Positions 1 through 8,113 are shown, counted from the first letter of the stretch. The stretch: DNA of 64,000 bases from Vulcanimicrobiota bacterium (GCA_963812135.1 CAWETU010000001.1:256001-320000), one strand, 5' to 3'. Numbers and translations: made by a program. Notes: generated from the letters alone by a model not told the origin.

Positions 1-69
1 GGCGTCTTCCCAGCATTGGGCGTAGCGGATAATCGTGAAATCTGATTTCTGCGCGACCTCACTGCGCAT
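1..69 (-). CDS. DUF3419 / BtaA-like SAM-dependent 3-amino-3-carboxypropyl transferase family protein, 5' end only (runs off window)
   Basis: Not in the ORF track. Manual translation from the ATG at 69 gives MRSEVAQKSDFTIIRYAQCWEDA; IRYAQCWED matches the N-terminal Y-x-x-x-WED signature of DUF3419/BtaA. The start overlaps the end of the upstream gene. Confidence 0.7.
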   Translation of the reverse strand, partial: MRSEVAQKSDFTIIRYAQCWEDA

Positions 70-2764
70 GTGCCAGCTCCGCCGCCAGCTGGATGCGGGT
101 CAGCACGCCGGTGGCGCCGTCGAACTCGACGTGGTCGCCGTCTTTGAGCCACGACGTCAGACCTTCGATCGAAACGATCGCCGGAATGCCCATCTCGCGC
201 GCGACGATCGCCGCGTGCGAGAGCAGGCTGCCGCGCTCCACCAAAATGCCGCTCGCGGCGGGGAAGAGCATCACCCAGCTCGGGTCGGTGCGTTCGGCGA
301 CGAGCACGTCGCCCTTGTGCAGCGTCGCCGCATGCGGATCGCGCACGACGCGAACGGTCCCGCGGACTACGCCGGGGCAACACCCGGTCCCGGTGCGCGT
401 CTCGCCTGTCGCACGCGGCGCTGCGCCGTTCGGAATCGGTGGGTCTTCGACGTCGATCGAGACATCGGCGCCATCGACCGGGCCGTGCGTCACGAAGCGA
501 TCGGGCGGTGGGGGCATCTGGCGGTAGCGTTCGAACTCCGCCTTGCGTGCGGCGACGCGAGCTTTGAGGTCAACGGCGGCATCAGGTCTCTCGACCTCTC
601 CGAGCGCCTCGTCGAGCTCGAGGTAGAAGATGTCGCGCGGTTCGTCCAGCAACCCGCGCTCGGCAAAGCACCGGCCCAACGCTATGAAGATCGCGCGGAT
701 GCGGCCGAAGAGCCGCGTGCGCCCGAATCGCAGGTTCTCGCGATCGACGATGCGGCCGCGTGCGTTCTTCACGATCCAGGCGAACATCGCGCGGCGCAGC
801 GGTGCGCGTGCGAGCGCCGTGGCCACGCGCTGTTCCGCCGCCGCACGCAGCGACGGGTGTAGCCCGGTCGCGTCAGCGCTCGCCGGTAACGCCTGCGCTG
901 CGAGCCGTCCAACCGCTCGGAGCAACATCGAGGGATCGTCGCGCAAGGTCGGGCTCTCGAGTTTGAGCTCGCCGTCGCAGCGATCGCCGAATTCGCGCAT
1001 GTAGTTCTCGAGGAGCTCGTTCACGCGACTGTCGCGGCGCAACGCTGCCAACGCGTCGGATGTCGGCGCGTTGGCCAATGCCTCGACAAGCGCCGGCTCG
1101 GCTGCAGCCGCAACGGCGAGCGCGCGGATGGCCGCGGCAGGGCGGGTGCTGATCATGCCGCCTTGCCCGCAGAGCAGATCGTTTTGCAGCGTGCCGGCGC
1201 TGTCGCCGCACCATGTGTTGCACGCGCGCCGCAAGAGGCCGTAGAAGATCATCGCAAAGAAATCATTGATGAGCGGCGCATCCCAATCGTTGACCAAGCG
1301 TTGCTCGAGGCGGCGATATTCGCGCACGATTTCGTCAGGGCCGAGGCCCGCTAGTCGCTGCGGGTCGGACGCGAGCGCGTCGTCGAGCACGTGATAGAAG
1401 CGCCGCATGCGCGCGCGCAGCGTCAGGTGGTGCCACGCCAGCGCCGCGCTCGTGCGCGCGACGGCGAGCGCGTCCGCGAGCCGGCTGCCCGTCTGGGCGC
1501 CGCGCACGTCGGCGAGCACGGACTCAGGCAGCGCCTCCTTGACGCCCATCATCTGTTCCATGAAGCGGCGGTTGATGCGGAATCCGGGCAGCAGCGCGAG
1601 CAAGCGATACCAATTCAGCAGATTGTAGTAGATGCGGCCGCGGATAAGGCCGAGCATGTTGCGAAACGTCTCGTCGTGCGCCGCTGCGACGCGATCGGGG
1701 ATGGCCAAGAGCCGGAAGAACTGGCGGTACGCGCTGTCGTAGGCGTGCTGCGCGAACGTGAAGGTGAGCGGCGTCGTCATGCCGCCGTAGCTCTCCGCGA
1801 TGTTGCTGTTATCCCAGATCGTGATATCGCCGGCGTGTGCTGTCGCGGCCAGCGACGTGATCGGCCGCGCTTGCAACAGATACAGCCGTCCGCTCCGATA
1901 CGCCCACTCGATGTCCTGGGGCGCGCCGAAATGCTGCTCGGCCTTGCGAGCGAGCTGCGCGACCTCGCGCACTGCGGCGTCGTCGAGCGCGGGCTGCTTG
2001 GCATGATCCGTCGAGATCTCGACCGCCTCGACGCCTTCGACGCTCGTCGGACTGCGCCGATGGGCGGCGCGCTTGTCGGCGATGATGCGCTCGACGATGC
2101 GGTCCCCGCGATCGACTTTGTACGTGTCGGCGTCCGCTTCGCCCGAGACAAGCGCGGTGCCCAGCCCGAACACGGCGCTGATCACGGCGATGTCGCGTGC
2201 CCCGCTGACCGGATCGGCGGAAAACGCGACGCCCGACGCGTCTGCGTCGATCATGCGTTGCACCAGCACGACGGGCGGCGCGGGCGCAGGCGCGAGGCCG
2301 CGATTGCCTCGGTACGCGGCCACTCGCTGCGTGAACGCAGATGCCCAGACCCGCGCGACGCGGTCGGCGACCTGATCGGCAGGGACGAAGAGATAGCTTT
2401 CGAGCTGCCCGGCGAAGGATTGTTGCGCGGCGTCTTCGTCGGCAGCGGAGGAGCGCACGGCGAAGACGTCGCCGGAACTCGCCGCGAGCGCGCGCACGGC
2501 GTCGTCAATCGCAGCCACGACGTCCTCGAGCGGCCGCACCGTGCGCAGCGTCGTCAGGTCATCGTCGGTCGGCGAAGCGTGCGAGAGCGCGGCCTGCTGT
2601 TCCGCCGTGAGGCTTGCGCGCCACGCGTCCGTCGAGATCGCGAACCATTGCGGCACCGGCATCCGTGCGGCGGTGAGCGATGCGAGCGCGCTGCCCTTTC
2701 CTCCGAAGCGGGCGATCGCATCGGCTGCGGCGACGTCGTCGCTAGAGCGGACGATGTAGCTCAT
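59..2764 (-). CDS. PEP/pyruvate-binding + swivelling His domain phosphotransferase (rifampin phosphotransferase/PigC-like architecture), substrate unknown
   Basis: N-terminal ATP-grasp motifs GGKG, AVRSSAADED, SFAGQ, SGVAFS, QDIEWA, LLQARPIT; large central domain; C-terminal LLSHAAIVAREMGIP phospho-His domain. Start moved to ATG 2764, which overlaps the upstream stop (ATGA). Confidence 0.85.
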   Translation of the reverse strand: MSYIVRSSDDVAAADAIARFGGKGSALASLTAARMPVPQWFAISTDAWRASLTAEQQAALSHASPTDDDLTTLRTVRPLEDVVAAIDDAVRALAASSGDVFAVRSSAADEDAAQQSFAGQLESYLFVPADQVADRVARVWASAFTQRVAAYRGNRGLAPAPAPPVVLVQRMIDADASGVAFSADPVSGARDIAVISAVFGLGTALVSGEADADTYKVDRGDRIVERIIADKRAAHRRSPTSVEGVEAVEISTDHAKQPALDDAAVREVAQLARKAEQHFGAPQDIEWAYRSGRLYLLQARPITSLAATAHAGDITIWDNSNIAESYGGMTTPLTFTFAQHAYDSAYRQFFRLLAIPDRVAAAHDETFRNMLGLIRGRIYYNLLNWYRLLALLPGFRINRRFMEQMMGVKEALPESVLADVRGAQTGSRLADALAVARTSAALAWHHLTLRARMRRFYHVLDDALASDPQRLAGLGPDEIVREYRRLEQRLVNDWDAPLINDFFAMIFYGLLRRACNTWCGDSAGTLQNDLLCGQGGMISTRPAAAIRALAVAAAAEPALVEALANAPTSDALAALRRDSRVNELLENYMREFGDRCDGELKLESPTLRDDPSMLLRAVGRLAAQALPASADATGLHPSLRAAAEQRVATALARAPLRRAMFAWIVKNARGRIVDRENLRFGRTRLFGRIRAIFIALGRCFAERGLLDEPRDIFYLELDEALGEVERPDAAVDLKARVAARKAEFERYRQMPPPPDRFVTHGPVDGADVSIDVEDPPIPNGAAPRATGETRTGTGCCPGVVRGTVRVVRDPHAATLHKGDVLVAERTDPSWVMLFPAASGILVERGSLLSHAAIVAREMGIPAIVSIEGLTSWLKDGDHVEFDGATGVLTRIQLAAELAHAQ

Positions 2765-3687
2765 CGCTGCACGAGCGCGCTGCCCGCGCGCACGGCCATC
2801 GGAATGACGCCCAGACCGAGGTACATGCCGAGCGTCCACACGCCTGACATGAGCTCGATCGCCTTTGACGCCGCATGCGTCGGCCGCCGCACGAACGTCA
2901 GCGCCGACCAGGCGGCCACAGCCGCCAGCGCGCCGAGCAGCAGCGCACCGGGCAGCGTGAAATTGATCTGCGCCGCTGCTCCGACGCCGAGCGCTGCGGT
3001 CGCGAGCACAGCGCCGAGCCACACGAGCGGAGCGGCGCGGCGGCCCCACAACACCGTGTAGGTCTCCACGCCGCGCTCTTCATCTTCGCTGGCGCGGATC
3101 TTACGGCCGACTTCGATCACGATGCCGTTCACGAAACTCACCGCCAGGAACCAGAAGAGACCGGCCGGTGGTGGTACGCGCGCCACGAGCCAGTCGAAGG
3201 CGGTGACATAGAAGTCGATCAGCGGCATGATGAACATATGCGAAAGCAGGTAGCTGACCGGATGCACCTTCAGCCATCCGCTGACGAAGAACTCTTTCGT
3301 CATCAGCCCGAAATAAGCCCACACGCCGGCGAGAATGAGACACAGCGCCGGATCGATCAGCAGCGCGATGGCCAGCTGGATGAGCGCTCCCGCGACGCCG
3401 ACCACGCCGAGCTCCCGCAGACTGACCAGGCCGCGCTGCACGGGCCGATACGGGCGGTACGCGAGATCGTCGTCGTAGTCTTTGAACTCGTCAGCGATAC
3501 GCAGCTGCGCGAAGAAGATGAACGACGATGCGAAGCCGCTCAGCAACAGCGGCCACGGCGGGAAATGGCTGCTGCCCCGCAGCAGCGCGGAGAAGCACAT
3601 CGCCGAGGCGCTGAACGCCGCGATCAGCGGACCGTGCGCGAGCACCGGAAAGCGCTCGCGCTGGTAGACGATGAAGCGTCCGATCAC
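2761..3687 (-). CDS. UbiA-family prenyltransferase (membrane)
   Basis: About 8 hydrophobic segments; Asp-rich motif ADEFKDYDDD followed by RPYRPVQRG; degenerate second motif EDEERGVETY; ATGA overlaps at both ends. Confidence 0.85.
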   Translation of the reverse strand: MIGRFIVYQRERFPVLAHGPLIAAFSASAMCFSALLRGSSHFPPWPLLLSGFASSFIFFAQLRIADEFKDYDDDLAYRPYRPVQRGLVSLRELGVVGVAGALIQLAIALLIDPALCLILAGVWAYFGLMTKEFFVSGWLKVHPVSYLLSHMFIMPLIDFYVTAFDWLVARVPPPAGLFWFLAVSFVNGIVIEVGRKIRASEDEERGVETYTVLWGRRAAPLVWLGAVLATAALGVGAAAQINFTLPGALLLGALAAVAAWSALTFVRRPTHAASKAIELMSGVWTLGMYLGLGVIPMAVRAGSALVQR

Positions 3688-4880
3688 GCGTGTCGGTCAG
3701 GTTGCGGCTCCGGCGTGCCGCGTGCGAGCCGTTCGTGCGCGCTCGCGAACTCAGCGGCGCAGAGCGCGCCCGAGATCGAGAGCTCGCCGGCGAGGCACAC
3801 GCCGGCGCAGATCTCGGCGAACGCGTTGGCCGGCTGTTCAGCCGGCAGTCCGAGTATGTCGAGACACGCGCGCTGCGATGGCAGCCCGGTCCCGCCGCCG
3901 ACCGCGCCGACGATCACGTTCGGCAGCGTGACGGAGGCGTAGAGGTCACCGTTCTCCGTCAACGTGAAGCGCGAGATGCCGATCGCCGATTCGGCGACGC
4001 ATGCCGCATCTTGGCCGCAGGCGATGTACAGCGCGGCGAGCCCGTTCGCGTAATGCCCCTCGATGCCGATCGCGCCGCTCATCACGGCGCCGACCGCGCC
4101 CATCTGCCAGTATTCGGTCAAATGCCGCGGCGTCGCATGCAGCCATTCCTCGCTCAGCCGTGAAGGCAGCGTCACTTCGGCGATCGCGCGGCGGCCGCGC
4201 AAGCCGAGCATCGACATGACCGTCGCTTTCTTGTCGCCGGAGAAATTGGCTTCGAGGAAGTGATGCTGCGGTTTGACCGGTGAGCGCTGCGCGATGAAGG
4301 TGCACATGGCCTGCGTCGCGATGGTCGCCATGTTCTGGCCGGCCGCCTCGCCGGTGGCGAACGAGAACGTCACGTAGACGCGATTACCTTCCACTGTGGT
4401 GCGCAACGACTCGAGCCGGCCGTGACGAGTGGTCGCGCCAGCGACGCCACGCAGCGCTTCGAGCTGGTCGCGGATCCATGACGCGAACGAGTTCGCTTCG
4501 GCCAGATCGACGAACGCGAAACCCGGTGCGCGGGTCACAGACGACGCATCCACGAGCGCGGTGCAGCCGCCTACCGCGGTGATGAGCTGGGCACCGCGGC
4601 TATAGGAAGCGACGAGCGCAGCTTCGGTCGTGGCCAGCGGCAGGTAGAAATCGCCGCGCGCATGGGCGCCGTTGACGCGCAGCGGCCCGGCAACGCCGAC
4701 CGGCACCTTCACCGTGCCGATGAAGTTTTCGATGTTGCGCGCGAAGGCTGTCAGTCGCGCGAGGGTGTGCGCATCAGCAAGCTCTGCGCGCACGGCATCC
4801 GACGCGCCGAGCTGATCCCAGCGCCGCGCCACCGACTCCGATGTCAGCTGCGCCGATCGATCGATCTTCGGCTTGTCCAC
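3684..4880 (-). CDS. Hydroxymethylglutaryl-CoA reductase family protein (class I-like)
   Basis: Motifs IENFIG, PLATTEAALVASYSRG, TGEAAGQNM, VGGGT, LAGELS and a C-terminal His; GTG start preceded by GAGG. Confidence 0.85.
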   Translation of the reverse strand: MDKPKIDRSAQLTSESVARRWDQLGASDAVRAELADAHTLARLTAFARNIENFIGTVKVPVGVAGPLRVNGAHARGDFYLPLATTEAALVASYSRGAQLITAVGGCTALVDASSVTRAPGFAFVDLAEANSFASWIRDQLEALRGVAGATTRHGRLESLRTTVEGNRVYVTFSFATGEAAGQNMATIATQAMCTFIAQRSPVKPQHHFLEANFSGDKKATVMSMLGLRGRRAIAEVTLPSRLSEEWLHATPRHLTEYWQMGAVGAVMSGAIGIEGHYANGLAALYIACGQDAACVAESAIGISRFTLTENGDLYASVTLPNVIVGAVGGGTGLPSQRACLDILGLPAEQPANAFAEICAGVCLAGELSISGALCAAEFASAHERLARGTPEPQPDRHA

Positions 4881-5024
4881 GGGCCCTCATTTGTACCAGG
4901 CGATGCCCAGTTAGTGACCGGAACGTGCTCTATCCTGGTATTTGCATCGCCGGCGCGCGTACCGTCCCGTGCGCGGGGCACGCGTCCCCGGCTTGAAAGG
5001 CGTCAAGCAGGCGCGAGGGAGCCG

Positions 5025-5652
5025 CTAGGGCCAGCGGAGTTCGAGCGGATCGGTCGCCGGCGTCTTGTCCGCGCCGGTGAGCGCGAAGCCCTCGATCCCG
5101 CCAGGCGATTGTTCGAAATAGCGCGCCGCGTCGCCGCGACCATCGGCGACGAGCTCGCCCACTTTTGCGGTCGTTCCGCCGCGAGTCTCCCACAACGCAT
5201 AGCGCGCATGCGGCGAAAGACCGTCCGCGACGACATAGATCCAATGGCCGTCGGCGGCCTGTATGACCTTGGCGTCGCCGCCCTTGCCGGTCAACGGATG
5301 GTGGACGAAGTGGCTGTGCACGAGCGCATCGACCGGCACGCTGACGGCCTCGTTTCGCAGCTGCACGTTCCACAAGATCAAGCCCAGACACGCCGCGATC
5401 GCGCCGGCGGCGATCCACGTGGACACCGGCCGTCGCGGCCGCAGCACGGTGACGCCGATATCGGGCGACATGCGCTTCACCGGACGTCGGCGCCTCAAGC
5501 GACGCGAGCGCGCCGACGCCTGCCATCGCATCGGCGAGCAACACGGCGCAGGTCGGGCACGTATCCGCGTGGTCGAGCAGCGCGCGCGCGGTCGCGTCGT
5601 CCAAACTGCCGAGCGCGAAGGCCTCGATCTCGTCGTACGGATGTTGCGTCAT
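5025..5652 (-). CDS. Zinc-binding anti-sigma factor (zf-HC2 + TM + RskA-like C-terminus), split by a +1 frameshift near 5487
   Basis: First frame contains HADTCPTC (HxxxCxxC); second frame contains TM WIAAGAIAACLGLILW and RskA-like YALW. Removing one base near 5487 joins them (LEAP-RPVKRMSP). Overlaps the stop of the sigma gene. Confidence 0.8.
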
Positions 5653-6206
5653 GGCGATTGCGACCCCATCGCCCGCGCAAGTCTCGACAATCCGAGTTGT
5701 GCGCGCCGCTTCACCGTGCCCAAGGGCGCGCCGGTCCGCTGCGCGATCTGGGCGAGCGTCATCGAGCCGAAATAGGCATACGTGATCACCGTCTTCTGTT
5801 CCGCCGGAAGCTCTTCGAGCGCCGCGCGCACGCCGTGCGCCGCTTCGTGCGCGGCTACTTCATCGAAAGGATCAGCGGCCACGCCGCCCTCGAAGCTGCG
5901 CTCTTCGCGCGCGTTGCGGCGCGATTCAGAACGCACGATACCGAGCGCCGCGTTGCGGGTGACGGTGAACAGCCATGGCCCGATCCCTCCGGTTCGGACG
6001 ACCAGTCCGTGTCGGTGTTGCCACAGGGCCAAGAACGCTTCTTGCACGGCGTCCTCGGCGCGAGCGTCGTCGTGCAGCACGCGGTAGGCCACACCTTTGC
6101 AGCGCGCCGCGTAGCCTTTATAGGCGTCCTCGAGCGCGGTGGCATCGTCTGCCGCTAGGCGCCGGACGAGTTCTGCGTCCACTCCCTCAGCGATTTCCCT
6201 TGACAC
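5649..6206 (-). CDS. ECF sigma-70 factor (SigK-like)
   Basis: Region 2 AEDAVQEAFLALW...WLFTVTRN; region 4 LPAEQKTVI...TLAQIA...PLGTVKRR; adjacent anti-sigma. Confidence 0.92.
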   Translation of the reverse strand: MSREIAEGVDAELVRRLAADDATALEDAYKGYAARCKGVAYRVLHDDARAEDAVQEAFLALWQHRHGLVVRTGGIGPWLFTVTRNAALGIVRSESRRNAREERSFEGGVAADPFDEVAAHEAAHGVRAALEELPAEQKTVITYAYFGSMTLAQIAQRTGAPLGTVKRRAQLGLSRLARAMGSQSP

Positions 6207-6235
6207 GCATGTTATGTTTAGGTTGTCCGATCACT

Positions 6236-6263
6236 GTATGCCGCGGCTCGTCCCAACGGTTCA
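6236..6263 (-). promoter_or_regulatory. Possible ECF-type autoregulatory promoter
   Basis: Minus strand TGAACC-N16-GCATAC about 30 nt upstream of the sigma start; resembles the AAC-containing -35 of ECF promoters. Confidence 0.35.
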
Positions 6264-6329
6264 TTCGAATCCCCGGGACGTCCCGCCAAGCCGCCGAAAC
6301 AGCCTGTTTTGGGGGCGAGTACAAGGGTA

Positions 6330-6335
6330 TATAAT
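6330..6335 (+). promoter_or_regulatory. Sigma70 -10 element upstream of recQ
   Basis: Perfect TATAAT in a GC-rich background about 125 nt upstream of recQ; no clear -35. Confidence 0.5.
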
Positions 6336-6460
6336 GGTCGGGAAGCCCGACCGAATAACTCGGTCGAGCGACCCGTTGAGCCGGTCCTCAAAACGTATAA
6401 GAGGCCGGCGGTTCGTCATCGGCGACGGGCTAAATTCGACCGCTACAGAGGCAAGAGAAC

Positions 6461-8113
6461 ATGAAGGTCGATCTCGACCTTAACGAAGCGCTCCGCACCC
6501 ATTTCGGCTACGAGAGCTTCCAACCCGGTCAAGAAGAAGTCATCCGGCGTGTGCTGGATGGCAAAGATACGCTTGCCATTTTGGCGACCGGCGCCGGCAA
6601 GTCGCTGTGCTACCAGCTTCCCGCATTGCTGCTGCCGGGCACGACCGTCGTCGTGTCGCCGCTCATCGCCCTCATGAAGGACCAGATCGACATGCTGGCC
6701 GAGGCGGGCATCAGCAGCACGATCGCGCTGAACAGCACGCTCTCCGATGAAGAAGAGATCTCCTATCTCGAGCGCGTGGCGCGCGGCAACCTCAAGCTCA
6801 TCTACGTCACGCCAGAGCGGTTAGAAGATGAGAGCTTCGTCGACGTCCTCAAACGCCTGCACGTGCCGCTGTTCGTCGTGGACGAGGCGCACTGCATCTC
6901 GCAATGGGGCCACGATTTCCGCCCCGCATATTTGAATCTGGGGCGCGTGATCGCCGCGCTCGGCAAGCCAACCGTGCTCGCGCTGACCGCGACCGCGACG
7001 CCCGCCGTGCGCGAAGACATCGTGACGCAGCTCGGCATACCGCATACCAAGCCGATCGTGCGCGGATTCGACCGCCCCAACCTCGTCTATGAGGTGGCGC
7101 GCACCGCGACGGAAGCCGATAAGCTGCGCGTGCTCAAGAACAAATTCAGCGGCTCGCTGTCGGGCGCGCTCGGGATCATCTACACGGCGACGATCAAGAA
7201 CACCTACGCCGTGGCGGAGTACTGCCGCGACGAGCTGGGCATCGAAGCCGACGTGTATCACAGCAAATTGCAAAAGGCCGAACGCGAGCGCGTGCACGAT
7301 CGCTTCATGAACGAAGACGTGAAGATCGTCGTCGCCACCAACGCGTTCGGGCTTGGCATCGACAAACCGAACATCCGCTTCGTGATCCACTACGATTTGC
7401 CGGGCAGCGTCGAGGCGTACACGCAAGAAGCTGGCCGTGCCGGCCGCGACGGCATCGAATCGACCTGCTTGCTGCTGTATCGCCAAAGCGACACGCGCGT
7501 GCAGAACTACTTCCTCACCGGCAAGTATCCCGACGTCGAAGAAGTCCAAAAGGTCTTCGGCACGCTGCAGTACTTCGAGAGCCAAGACAACGGCGTGTCG
7601 CTGTCCGATCTGCGCAAGATCTCGCAGCTGCCGCTGACAAAGCTCAAGGTCATCCTCGCTCTGCTCAAAAAAGGCGGCTTCATCCAGAACGTGACGAAGT
7701 CGACCTACGGCCTGCCGCCGTTGCTCAAGCAGAGCAAGGGCTTGGCGCTCAATCTCGCCAGCTATGAGACCAAGCGTTCGTACGACCAGAGCAAGCTGCA
7801 GATGATCCTGCAGTATTGCGAGACGCGCAGCTGCCGTCGCAAGTTCATCCTCAACTATTTCGGCGAAGATTACGACCTGCCCAACTGCGGCGCGTGCGAC
7901 AACTGCCGTGCGCAGCTCGCCAAGGGCGCGACGATCGAAGTGCTCGACACGCCACGCGTGAGCGAGTTCCGCATCGGCGACATCGTGCACCATCCCAAGT
8001 TCGGGGAGGGCACCGTCGAGCGAGCCGAGCGCGACCTGGTCACGGTGCTGTTCCCGGCGCACGGATACAAGACGCTGCTCGCGACAGCTGTGGCCCGCCA
8101 ACAAATCGCCTAG
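6461..8113 (+). CDS. recQ: RecQ-family ATP-dependent DNA helicase
   Basis: TGAGKSLCYQLP, VDEAHCISQWGHDFRP, LTATAT, ATNAFGLGIDK, QEAGRAGRDG; Zn domain CRR...CGACDNC. Confidence 0.95.
   Translation: MKVDLDLNEALRTHFGYESFQPGQEEVIRRVLDGKDTLAILATGAGKSLCYQLPALLLPGTTVVVSPLIALMKDQIDMLAEAGISSTIALNSTLSDEEEISYLERVARGNLKLIYVTPERLEDESFVDVLKRLHVPLFVVDEAHCISQWGHDFRPAYLNLGRVIAALGKPTVLALTATATPAVREDIVTQLGIPHTKPIVRGFDRPNLVYEVARTATEADKLRVLKNKFSGSLSGALGIIYTATIKNTYAVAEYCRDELGIEADVYHSKLQKAERERVHDRFMNEDVKIVVATNAFGLGIDKPNIRFVIHYDLPGSVEAYTQEAGRAGRDGIESTCLLLYRQSDTRVQNYFLTGKYPDVEEVQKVFGTLQYFESQDNGVSLSDLRKISQLPLTKLKVILALLKKGGFIQNVTKSTYGLPPLLKQSKGLALNLASYETKRSYDQSKLQMILQYCETRSCRRKFILNYFGEDYDLPNCGACDNCRAQLAKGATIEVLDTPRVSEFRIGDIVHHPKFGEGTVERAERDLVTVLFPAHGYKTLLATAVARQQIA

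Follow-up and report, generated by a model that had tools for sequence, protein, structure and literature searches.

Orphan class-I HMG-CoA (3-hydroxy-3-methylglutaryl-CoA) reductases (HMGRs) in bacteria that use the methylerythritol phosphate (MEP) pathway have been puzzling ever since the early studies in comparative genomics. Several described systems of lipid chemistry bear on the present work. BtaA, which is paired with a btaB-type N-methyltransferase, adds the aminocarboxypropyl group of S-adenosylmethionine (SAM) to diacylglycerol in the BtaA/BtaB pathway to diacylglyceryl-trimethylhomoserine (DGTS). The archaeal digeranylgeranylglyceryl phosphate (DGGGP) synthase is a membrane UbiA enzyme that makes an ether bond to a glycerol-phosphate lipid, and it and chlorophyll synthase both form C-O bonds. 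In phytol salvage, the phytol kinase VTE5 and the phytyl-phosphate kinase VTE6 act in turn, followed by chlorophyll synthase or homogentisate phytyltransferase. Here we describe a seven-gene operon that begins near the left end of a 64,000-nucleotide stretch of DNA from a Vulcanimicrobiota bacterium (GCA_963812135.1, CAWETU010000001.1:256001-320000; G000:C1:256001-320000; hereafter the window, to which plain coordinates refer), in a genome of 2.79 Mb with 64% G+C that is 98.4% complete. We regard it as very probable that this is a conserved lipid operon led by an FcrA-type reductase, and give a probability of roughly 0.55 to the fuller reading, in which the seven genes as a whole would build a fatty-alcohol-derived lipid by the scheme set out in the Discussion.

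The closest described relative of the first enzyme is FcrA. As given in the main-text sections of Grossi et al. (2025, ISME J; PMC11948995), FcrA is a clade of class-I HMGR homologues that reduce acyl-CoAs of at least C14 to fatty alcohols with NADPH, do not reduce HMG-CoA and are not inhibited by simvastatin; the enzyme of Ca. Promineifilum breve was assayed and that of Natronomonas pharaonis studied in vivo. The same sections describe its discovery in wax-ester synthesis, suggest roles in ether-lipid formation via PlsC-like or AGPS genes, and list three changes in the pocket relative to HMGR: Ser684 becomes Glu, the HMG-binding Lys (printed as Lys795; Lys735 by our own numbering, chain index + 421) is lost, generally to a small residue, and Leu862 becomes a bulky residue.

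Results

Seven coupled genes

The preliminary description of the window had reported four coupled genes on one strand at its left end. All four lie there on the minus strand, with no spacers between them and with stops and starts that overlap. Their standing as the whole unit did not hold: once 16 kb to the left of the window had been added (locus L001) to complete the operon, the real unit proved to consist of seven coupled genes, reaching about 5 kb beyond the window. It opens with the HMGR-like reductase (3684-4880; 398 aa; PF00368, E 9e-108), followed by a UbiA-superfamily membrane transferase (2761-3687; 308 aa; PF01040, 45 bits, cut-off 34.2), a dikinase of Rph/PigC architecture (59-2764; 901 aa; PPDK_N, E 8e-68; mobile His domain, E 6e-25) and a DUF3419 (BtaA-like) gene, of which the first 23 codons lie in the window (1-69) and which ends at G000:C1:254969 (L001 14969; 366 aa; PF11899, E 1.6e-58). 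An all-helical membrane protein (L001 13578-14972; 464 aa), a tandem GNAT protein (L001 12652-13581; 309 aa; weak C-terminal PF00583 match) and an AMP-binding, acyl-CoA-ligase-like enzyme (L001 11096-12655; 519 aa; AMP-binding, E 1e-48; NF006754, 366 bits) complete the set, all likewise on the minus strand, where the seven genes together span G000:C1:251096-260880. The reductase and UbiA genes overlap in GTGA, the UbiA and dikinase genes in ATGA, and the dikinase and DUF3419 genes by 11 nt; each of the three junctions from the DUF3419 gene to the ligase gene, left of the window, is a 4-nt overlap. Upstream, a 49-nt spacer (4881-4929, minus strand) runs from the stop of an anti-sigma gene to the GTG start of the reductase, and a probable ribosome-binding stretch, gaggg, can be read in it before the GTG. 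The dikinase start is the ATG at 2764; a 996-aa frame from the GTG at 3049 was rejected because it overruns the UbiA gene.

The reductase is most likely of the FcrA type

PF00368 covers residues 17-387 of the reductase, and TIGR00533, the equivalog model for NADPH-dependent HMG-CoA reductase, gives it 308 bits, below the cut-off of 441.8. When pocket residues were read from HMMER alignments to the human (1dq8) and Methanothermococcus (6hr7) HMGRs, the catalytic residues E86, K217, D291 and H382 were found to be kept, corresponding to human Glu559, Lys691, Asp767 and His866. Three other positions are changed: E210 stands at a Ser of both solved HMGRs (human Ser684), M260, followed by Gly, at the HMG-binding Lys of both, and F378 at a Leu of both (human Leu862). 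All seven residues are invariant in 22/22 sequences of the subfamily. In its class-I HMGR fold, its catalytic Glu/Lys/Asp/His, its three pocket changes and its occurrence in a host without the mevalonate pathway, the enzyme resembles FcrA as the published main-text sections present it. Measured against the same sections it also differs, having Met at the lost-Lys position where FcrA generally has a small residue, Phe at the bulky position where N. pharaonis has Trp, and no N-terminal Lad domain, so that, unlike the assayed FcrA, it starts with the catalytic domain.

The genome context is in keeping with this. HMG-CoA synthase (PF01154) and mevalonate-diphosphate decarboxylase (TIGR01240) had no match in the 98.4%-complete genome, the only mevalonate-kinase match was a GHMP protein (TIGR00549, 94 bits against a cut-off of 163), and Dxr and IspH were present with scores over their cut-offs, indicating the MEP pathway. 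The lack of mevalonate-pathway genes beside the reductase, which had been observed for the window, was thus confirmed and extends, by profile searches, to the whole genome. In a further departure from the setting of FcrA, the host genome gave no match to a WS/DGAT wax synthase. Judged by its residues and its context, what had been taken for an HMG-CoA reductase most likely makes fatty alcohols and belongs to the FcrA type.

Conservation and distribution of the operon

The reductase was aligned with 21 homologues, and contigs representing one genome per species were searched with the alignment; 591 of the 600 first pattern matches were confirmed, and the best 80 loci were kept and searched with all seven proteins by tblastn. 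A UbiA gene was present in 47 of 74 loci with a downstream flank of at least 1 kb; UbiA, dikinase and DUF3419 genes together in 37 of 61 with at least 5 kb; and all seven genes in 27 of 54 with at least 9.5 kb, another 21 of which had the reductase alone. The first five genes follow the same order in 34 of the 36 loci that have all five, and all seven do so in 26 of the 28 that have all seven; in the two exceptions the genes for GNAT and ligase stand at the front, having been shifted there together. Throughout, GNAT precedes ligase on the same strand (29/29 loci). Since clustering of 840 flanking open reading frames (ORFs) from 38 operon loci brought out no further family in more than five loci, the seven genes can be taken as the unit. 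As labelled, the carriers belong to about ten phyla: Thermodesulfobacteriota (Geobacter), Planctomycetota, Verrucomicrobiota, Acidobacteriota, Gemmatimonadota, Deinococcota, Chloroflexota, Cyanobacteriota, alpha- and gammaproteobacteria and Myxococcota, with the first two genes only, on a short contig, in Armatimonadota. Homologues of the reductase itself, at about 62% identity, occur in Sulfurifustis variabilis and Alkalilimnicola ehrlichii. The preliminary description had proposed looking for conservation of the neighbourhood across phyla, and the fixed seven-gene order provides it.

One metagenome-assembled genome (MAG) labelled Halobacteriales carries six of the seven genes on a single contig (L058, G017:C63). 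The other PF00368 gene of this genome (L110, G017:C2:16609-17709) contains EEPSVVAA, which we take to be a class-II HMGR-like motif, and it looks class-II-like, not class-I as expected of haloarchaea; it was accordingly not used for a class-I HMGR control, and the alignments to the solved HMGRs took that part instead. The MAG could be mislabelled or misbinned; alternatively, the operon could have passed from one domain to another.

The 21 reductase-alone loci comprise 18 from Vibrionaceae, one from Colwelliaceae and two from uncultured gammaproteobacteria. In a quick IQ-TREE of the 80 fetched loci and the query, in which the query has a long branch and an uncertain placement, the solitary reductases form two clades nested among operon-linked sequences. 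The tree also mixes phyla which, together with the patchy occurrence of the operon within its class (see Discussion), suggests that it is accessory and mobile. The solitary FcrA-subfamily genes of Vibrio, Photobacterium, Aliivibrio and a Colwelliaceae genome show 53-56% identity (Vibrionaceae loci L019, L025, L030, L031, L035, L037, L038, L041, L047, L060, L065-L068, L070, L076, L078 and L084; Colwelliaceae locus L033). In V. splendidus (L066) the reductase is flanked by a FUSC-like membrane protein and by a LysR regulator; its six partner genes are all missing within 10 kb of it.

Several loci depart from the standard set. Locus L009 (3952-14004) encodes the reductase, a DAGK_cat kinase, UbiA, the dikinase, GNAT, a phosphatidylserine (PS) decarboxylase, a desaturase and DUF3419; the membrane protein is missing, and it is the soluble DAGK_cat/YegS lipid kinase that follows the reductase. 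In its sister locus L026 (567-9163), an AurF-like diiron oxygenase and a 2-oxoacid_dh-type acyltransferase are accompanied by the reductase, a DAGK_cat/YegS kinase that overlaps the reductase stop, a CTP_transf_1 protein, a desaturase and the dikinase. It looks as if one lipid kinase had been displaced by another in this pair, two loci in all. As accessory genes, variant loci carry those for a PS decarboxylase, for fatty-acid desaturases, for an MMPL transporter and for a MacB/FtsX permease; all of these families are associated with the modification of lipids or with envelope export. At L034 only the reductase-UbiA pair is kept. Phormidium sp. CCY1219 (L011 9435-12776) has four of the genes, and here an insert of about 3.7 kb separates UbiA from the dikinase; it encodes a ParA-like ATPase and a coiled-coil protein, along with a methyl-accepting chemotaxis protein on the opposite strand.

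The UbiA-like transferase and the dikinase

The first Asp motif of the UbiA-like protein, D66xxxD70xxxD74, is invariant in 22/22 orthologues. Searched against the PDB at E <= 1, the UbiA profile matched only chlorophyll synthase and DGGGP synthase, both at about 1e-5. The likeness to archaeal DGGGP synthase (PDB 6m31, E 2e-5; NF009522, E 5.5e-5) is nevertheless confined to the region of the first Asp motif, and all equivalog scores are far below their cut-offs.

In the dikinase, PPDK_N (19-308) and the PEP-utilizers mobile domain (816-886), with its swivel His in SHAAIVARE, are the only domains matched, and there is no PEP/pyruvate TIM barrel. The protein shares with Rph and with PigC/RedH an N-terminal ATP-grasp, a large central substrate domain and a C-terminal His swivel. 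Its scores, however, come to no more than about one third of the equivalog cut-offs (Rph 334/999, PigC 314/1300, RedH 362/1350 bits), and the nearest model, NF004881 for an uncharacterised 'PEP synthase', also stays below its cut-off (795/883 bits). The best PDB match, the Listeria rifampin phosphotransferase 5fbs (also 5hv1; E 1.7e-71), covers only the ATP-grasp and swivel ends, whereas the central domain does not align by sequence with solved Rph; as a lead only, the centre resembles Atlas clusters that carry Rph_4th. By analogy with these enzymes, the dikinase should phosphorylate a bulky substrate from ATP, releasing AMP and Pi.

The membrane protein

The model of the membrane protein is confident (predicted local distance difference test, pLDDT, 89). 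The first ~215 residues are conserved, with E32, R35, K36, H39, R92, D129, G136, G140, K151, G155, E197, D205, N206 and P210 invariant, while the C-terminal half is poorly conserved and absent in two loci. Since these two (L013 10149-10943 and L016 15847-16650; 264 and 267 aa) encode the N-terminal half alone, the C-terminal helical half must be dispensable or supplied elsewhere. An Atlas search returned unnamed clusters only, plus a lead to DUF92 at 30%. By hhalign, the N-domain matched CdsA with a probability of 88.6% (E 2.7e-6, 79 columns), pairing D129, K151-S-x-E-G and E197 with the CdsA core; a 208-aa archaeal ORF of the PF01148 type with 83.7% (E 8e-6, 125 columns), the two having an E..DN..P end motif in common; and DUF92, which we take to be the VTE6 family, with 48.7%. 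The C-domain, used as a control, stayed below 1%: the C-terminal half found no relative by hhalign against DUF92 or CdsA, and the idea that it might be a second, DUF92/VTE6-like kinase was rejected at a probability of 0.6%. These remote matches suggest distant kinship between the N-domain and the CTP-dependent lipid kinases and cytidylyltransferases, and we read this domain as a probable CTP-dependent lipid kinase of the polyprenol-kinase type. The membrane-protein family is large, with 1526 clusters at 50% identity reached at E <= 1e-30 and 6664 at E <= 0.001.

The DUF3419, GNAT and ligase proteins

The PF11899 match of the BtaA-like protein spans profile positions 21-382 of 385 (343 residues in L001), making it, like BtaA, a full-length DUF3419 protein, for which no solved relative was found in the PDB. 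Its setting is not that of BtaA, as its gene sits between those of the dikinase and the kinase-like membrane protein. In one 596-aa sequence (P0218) the C-terminal part of DUF3419 (2-210) is joined to the membrane protein (220-517); either two neighbours of the operon have truly fused here, or gene calling has produced an artefact.

In the GNAT protein the Pfam match is limited to the C-terminal half, and the alignment profile found only weak GNAT matches in the PDB (E ~0.05). The model (pLDDT 89), however, shows two GNAT folds in one chain. By Foldseek its best match was 7q3a (E 5e-13, query-normalised template-modelling score, TMq, 0.61), with 5kf1, 2c27 and 1ozp also found; it resembles MshD, the glucosamine (GlcN) N-acetyltransferase and MAB_4324 at TM ~0.6, and the aminoacyl-tRNA-dependent folds of MprF and FemX score lower, at ~0.4. 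The ligase is nearest to NF006754, the 'fatty acid CoA ligase family', and to OleC-type synthetases.

Neighbouring genes and expression

Upstream on the same strand lie an ECF sigma factor (Sigma70_r2/r4; 5649-6206, minus strand) and a zf-HC2 anti-sigma protein (4930-5652, minus strand), the latter 49 nt from the reductase. The pair could drive the operon under envelope stress; it is not conserved beside the operon in other loci. Farther on, a 550-aa ORF on the plus strand (6461-8113) has a translation that, read by eye, resembles a RecQ-type DEAH helicase, and G+C is ~0.61 over 6000-8000 against 0.67-0.70 in the operon. Downstream of the ligase follow dnaX and then recR. Since the dnaX ORF as listed (L001 9399-11093, minus strand; G000:C1:249399-251093) begins 2 nt past the ligase stop, the lipid operon may read through into dnaX-recR.

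Contigs of a soil metatranscriptome (X7) contain two pieces at least 99% alike to the window, at 2738-2948 (the end of the UbiA gene) and 4750-4911 (the 5' end of the reductase gene). By a 31-letter rule neither spans the junction between two genes, and DNA carry-over is possible, so that they give a weak hint of expression only; small shares in X2-X6 and X8 are uninformative on habitat.

Discussion

We propose the following scheme, which would turn the seven gene products into one pathway. The FcrA-type reductase would reduce a long-chain acyl-CoA to a fatty alcohol with NADPH, a reaction shown by others for this enzyme family. The alcohol would then be phosphorylated twice to an alkyl diphosphate, once by the membrane protein's N-domain, with its likeness to CTP-dependent polyprenol kinases, and once by the His-swivel dikinase (ATP to AMP and Pi), in either order. 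The UbiA-family enzyme would link the alkyl chain through an ether bond to a common acceptor, such as glycerol phosphate, at one of its oxygens, and the BtaA-like DUF3419 enzyme would add a 3-amino-3-carboxypropyl (homoserine) head group from SAM. Finally, the ligase would activate a fatty acid and, with the tandem GNAT, N-acylate or N-acetylate the new amine; because it travels with the GNAT gene, the ligase more likely feeds N-acylation than the reductase. The expected product would be a phosphorus-free, ether-linked amino lipid.

The preliminary description had put forward the chain from acyl-CoA through alcohol, phosphorylated donor and chain transfer to a phosphorus-free head group. The FcrA pocket of the reductase now lends weight to its first step, and the three genes found to the left of the window, for a ligase-like enzyme, a membrane protein like CTP-type lipid kinases and a tandem GNAT, fit into it; the later steps and the product we still infer.

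A number of observations weigh against this scheme. As regards the membrane protein, the kinase assignment is one of remote homology: neither Pfam nor NCBIfam has a family for it, PF01148 gives no match, Foldseek with the model returned nothing from the PDB at E <= 0.001, and the CdsA (Z 7.8) and CarS (Z 6.3) matches of a VIA wide search fall within the noise range, listed as they are among many designed helical proteins, and thus count as a hint only. The N-domain may alternatively be a cytidylyltransferase giving a CDP-alkanol. As regards the UbiA-like enzyme, E192, R195, K196 and E203 are invariant in the place where, on our assumption about its position, the second Asp-rich motif of UbiA, which we take to be DxxxD, would be expected; and to our knowledge the known UbiA donors are allylic or otherwise stabilised diphosphates, a saturated alkyl diphosphate being unprecedented. 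DUF3419 membership does not by itself prove aminocarboxypropyl transfer, and, in contrast to BtaA, the protein has no btaB-type methyltransferase among its six companions. The closest folds of the GNAT model are acetyltransferases of amino sugars. For the UbiA, dikinase, DUF3419, membrane-protein and GNAT subfamilies alike, then, the proposed functions downstream of reduction, and with them the product, are predictions from family resemblance. Locus L026, with a DAGK-type kinase, a true CTP_transf_1 protein and the dikinase, has more phosphotransfer steps than the scheme needs. Lastly, the distribution is patchy, the dikinase being present in 6 of 61 genomes searched of the window's class and in one of six other genomes of the genus (61% identity), which makes an accessory role likelier than one in bulk lipid.

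This patchiness, together with a reductase tree that mixes phyla in the manner of transferable accessory clusters, also speaks for an alternative that we consider unlikely yet ahead of the others, namely that the same enzymes act on a small-molecule acceptor to make a low-abundance specialised product instead of a membrane lipid. Such a product could be a signal or a surfactant; it could also be an amino-acid derivative, alkylated or N-acylated, for instance an N-acyl-O-alkyl-homoserine or an alkyl ester. MMPL or MacB-type exporters lie inside the operon in some loci, the natural-product ligases PigC and RedH have the same architecture as the dikinase, and chlorophyll synthase, the best PDB match of the UbiA profile, esterifies a carboxylate. 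Against this, variant loci add genes of membrane-lipid metabolism (PS decarboxylase, desaturases, a CdsA-like protein), and the seven genes are fixed across some ten phyla without the tailoring diversity usual in natural-product clusters.

We think it distinctly less probable that the UbiA-like enzyme departs from the scheme by taking the alkyl phosphate for its acceptor and a polar diphosphate, for example phosphoribosyl pyrophosphate (PRPP), for its donor, on the model of decaprenyl-phosphate phosphoribosyltransferase, or by prenylating the fatty alcohol, the product being an alkyl-phospho-sugar or a mixed ether. An alkyl phosphate would need one kinase step only, donor binding could be unusual given the altered region where we assume the second Asp motif to lie, and some genomes keep just the reductase-UbiA pair, as at L034. 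The UbiA profile, however, reached no solved UbiA besides chlorophyll synthase and DGGGP synthase at E <= 1, and the conservation of two phosphotransfer enzymes with UbiA in 34/36 loci fits a diphosphate donor better.

There is a slim chance that the reductase merely supplies fatty alcohol to known routes, whether wax esters through WS/DGAT or ether lipids through AGPS or ElbD/PlsC-like enzymes, and that its neighbours are unrelated. The main-text sections on FcrA, which place it in wax-ester synthesis and suggest PlsC-like and AGPS ether-lipid roles (PMC11948995), lend this some support; yet the genome has no WS/DGAT match (AGPS was not among the searches), and the seven genes are translationally coupled and syntenic in 26/28 complete loci. 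It is most improbable that the enzyme is a genuine HMG-CoA reductase whose mevalonate would go into a non-canonical isoprenoid or another mevalonate-derived product, for although PF00368 is full-length, the catalytic tetrad intact and the TIGR00533 score 308 bits, that score is below the cut-off of 441.8, Glu and Met stand in place of Ser684 and Lys735, which contact the HMG carboxylate, HMG-CoA synthase and the later mevalonate enzymes were not found in a genome that has the MEP pathway, and the assayed family member does not, according to the main text of its description, reduce HMG-CoA (PMC11948995).

In searches of the full-text literature we found no paper joining FcrA or HMGR with UbiA, DUF3419/BtaA or a dikinase; the lipocone paper and the cly-cluster paper mention UbiA or DUF3419 in other contexts only, and the main-text sections of the FcrA paper do not mention a UbiA/dikinase/DUF3419 operon (PMC11948995). 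The earlier statement that no characterised pathway has this combination of genes therefore holds for the combination. It no longer holds for the reduction step, which ceased to be undescribed with the publication of FcrA in 2025. The reductase is thus a new member of a known family, and it is the operon as a pathway that is undescribed.

The main-text account of the 2025 work explained the enzyme for wax esters only; the operon shows the partners of a large branch of FcrA that is without Lad, in a fixed seven-gene module that spans Geobacter, cyanobacteria, Planctomycetota, Verrucomicrobiota, Acidobacteriota and Gemmatimonadota. If the scheme is true, it would represent a new way of making ether bonds on fatty chains and a new substrate class both for UbiA enzymes and for Rph-type dikinases. 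Ether-bound aminolipids are seen in environmental lipidomes, and the operon would then be a candidate source of them. More tentatively, and with the odds in our view somewhat against it, many phyla may possess an archaeal-style ether-lipid route that works on fatty chains and leads to phosphorus-free amino ether lipids with an N-acylated homoserine head group.

Of the known systems, phytol salvage would offer the closest analogy, if it is imagined joined to head-group chemistry of the BtaA type. In both, a lipid alcohol would undergo two phosphorylations followed by transfer through a UbiA-family enzyme; the N-domain of the membrane protein appears to be remote kin of the CTP-type lipid kinases and cytidylyltransferases and, more weakly, of DUF92, and the UbiA profile matches chlorophyll synthase. 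The two would differ in the chain, which here would be a saturated fatty alcohol made de novo by the reductase instead of an allylic-type isoprenoid, and in the enzymes, since one of the phosphorylations would fall to a His-swivel dikinase of a kind that phytol salvage does not use.

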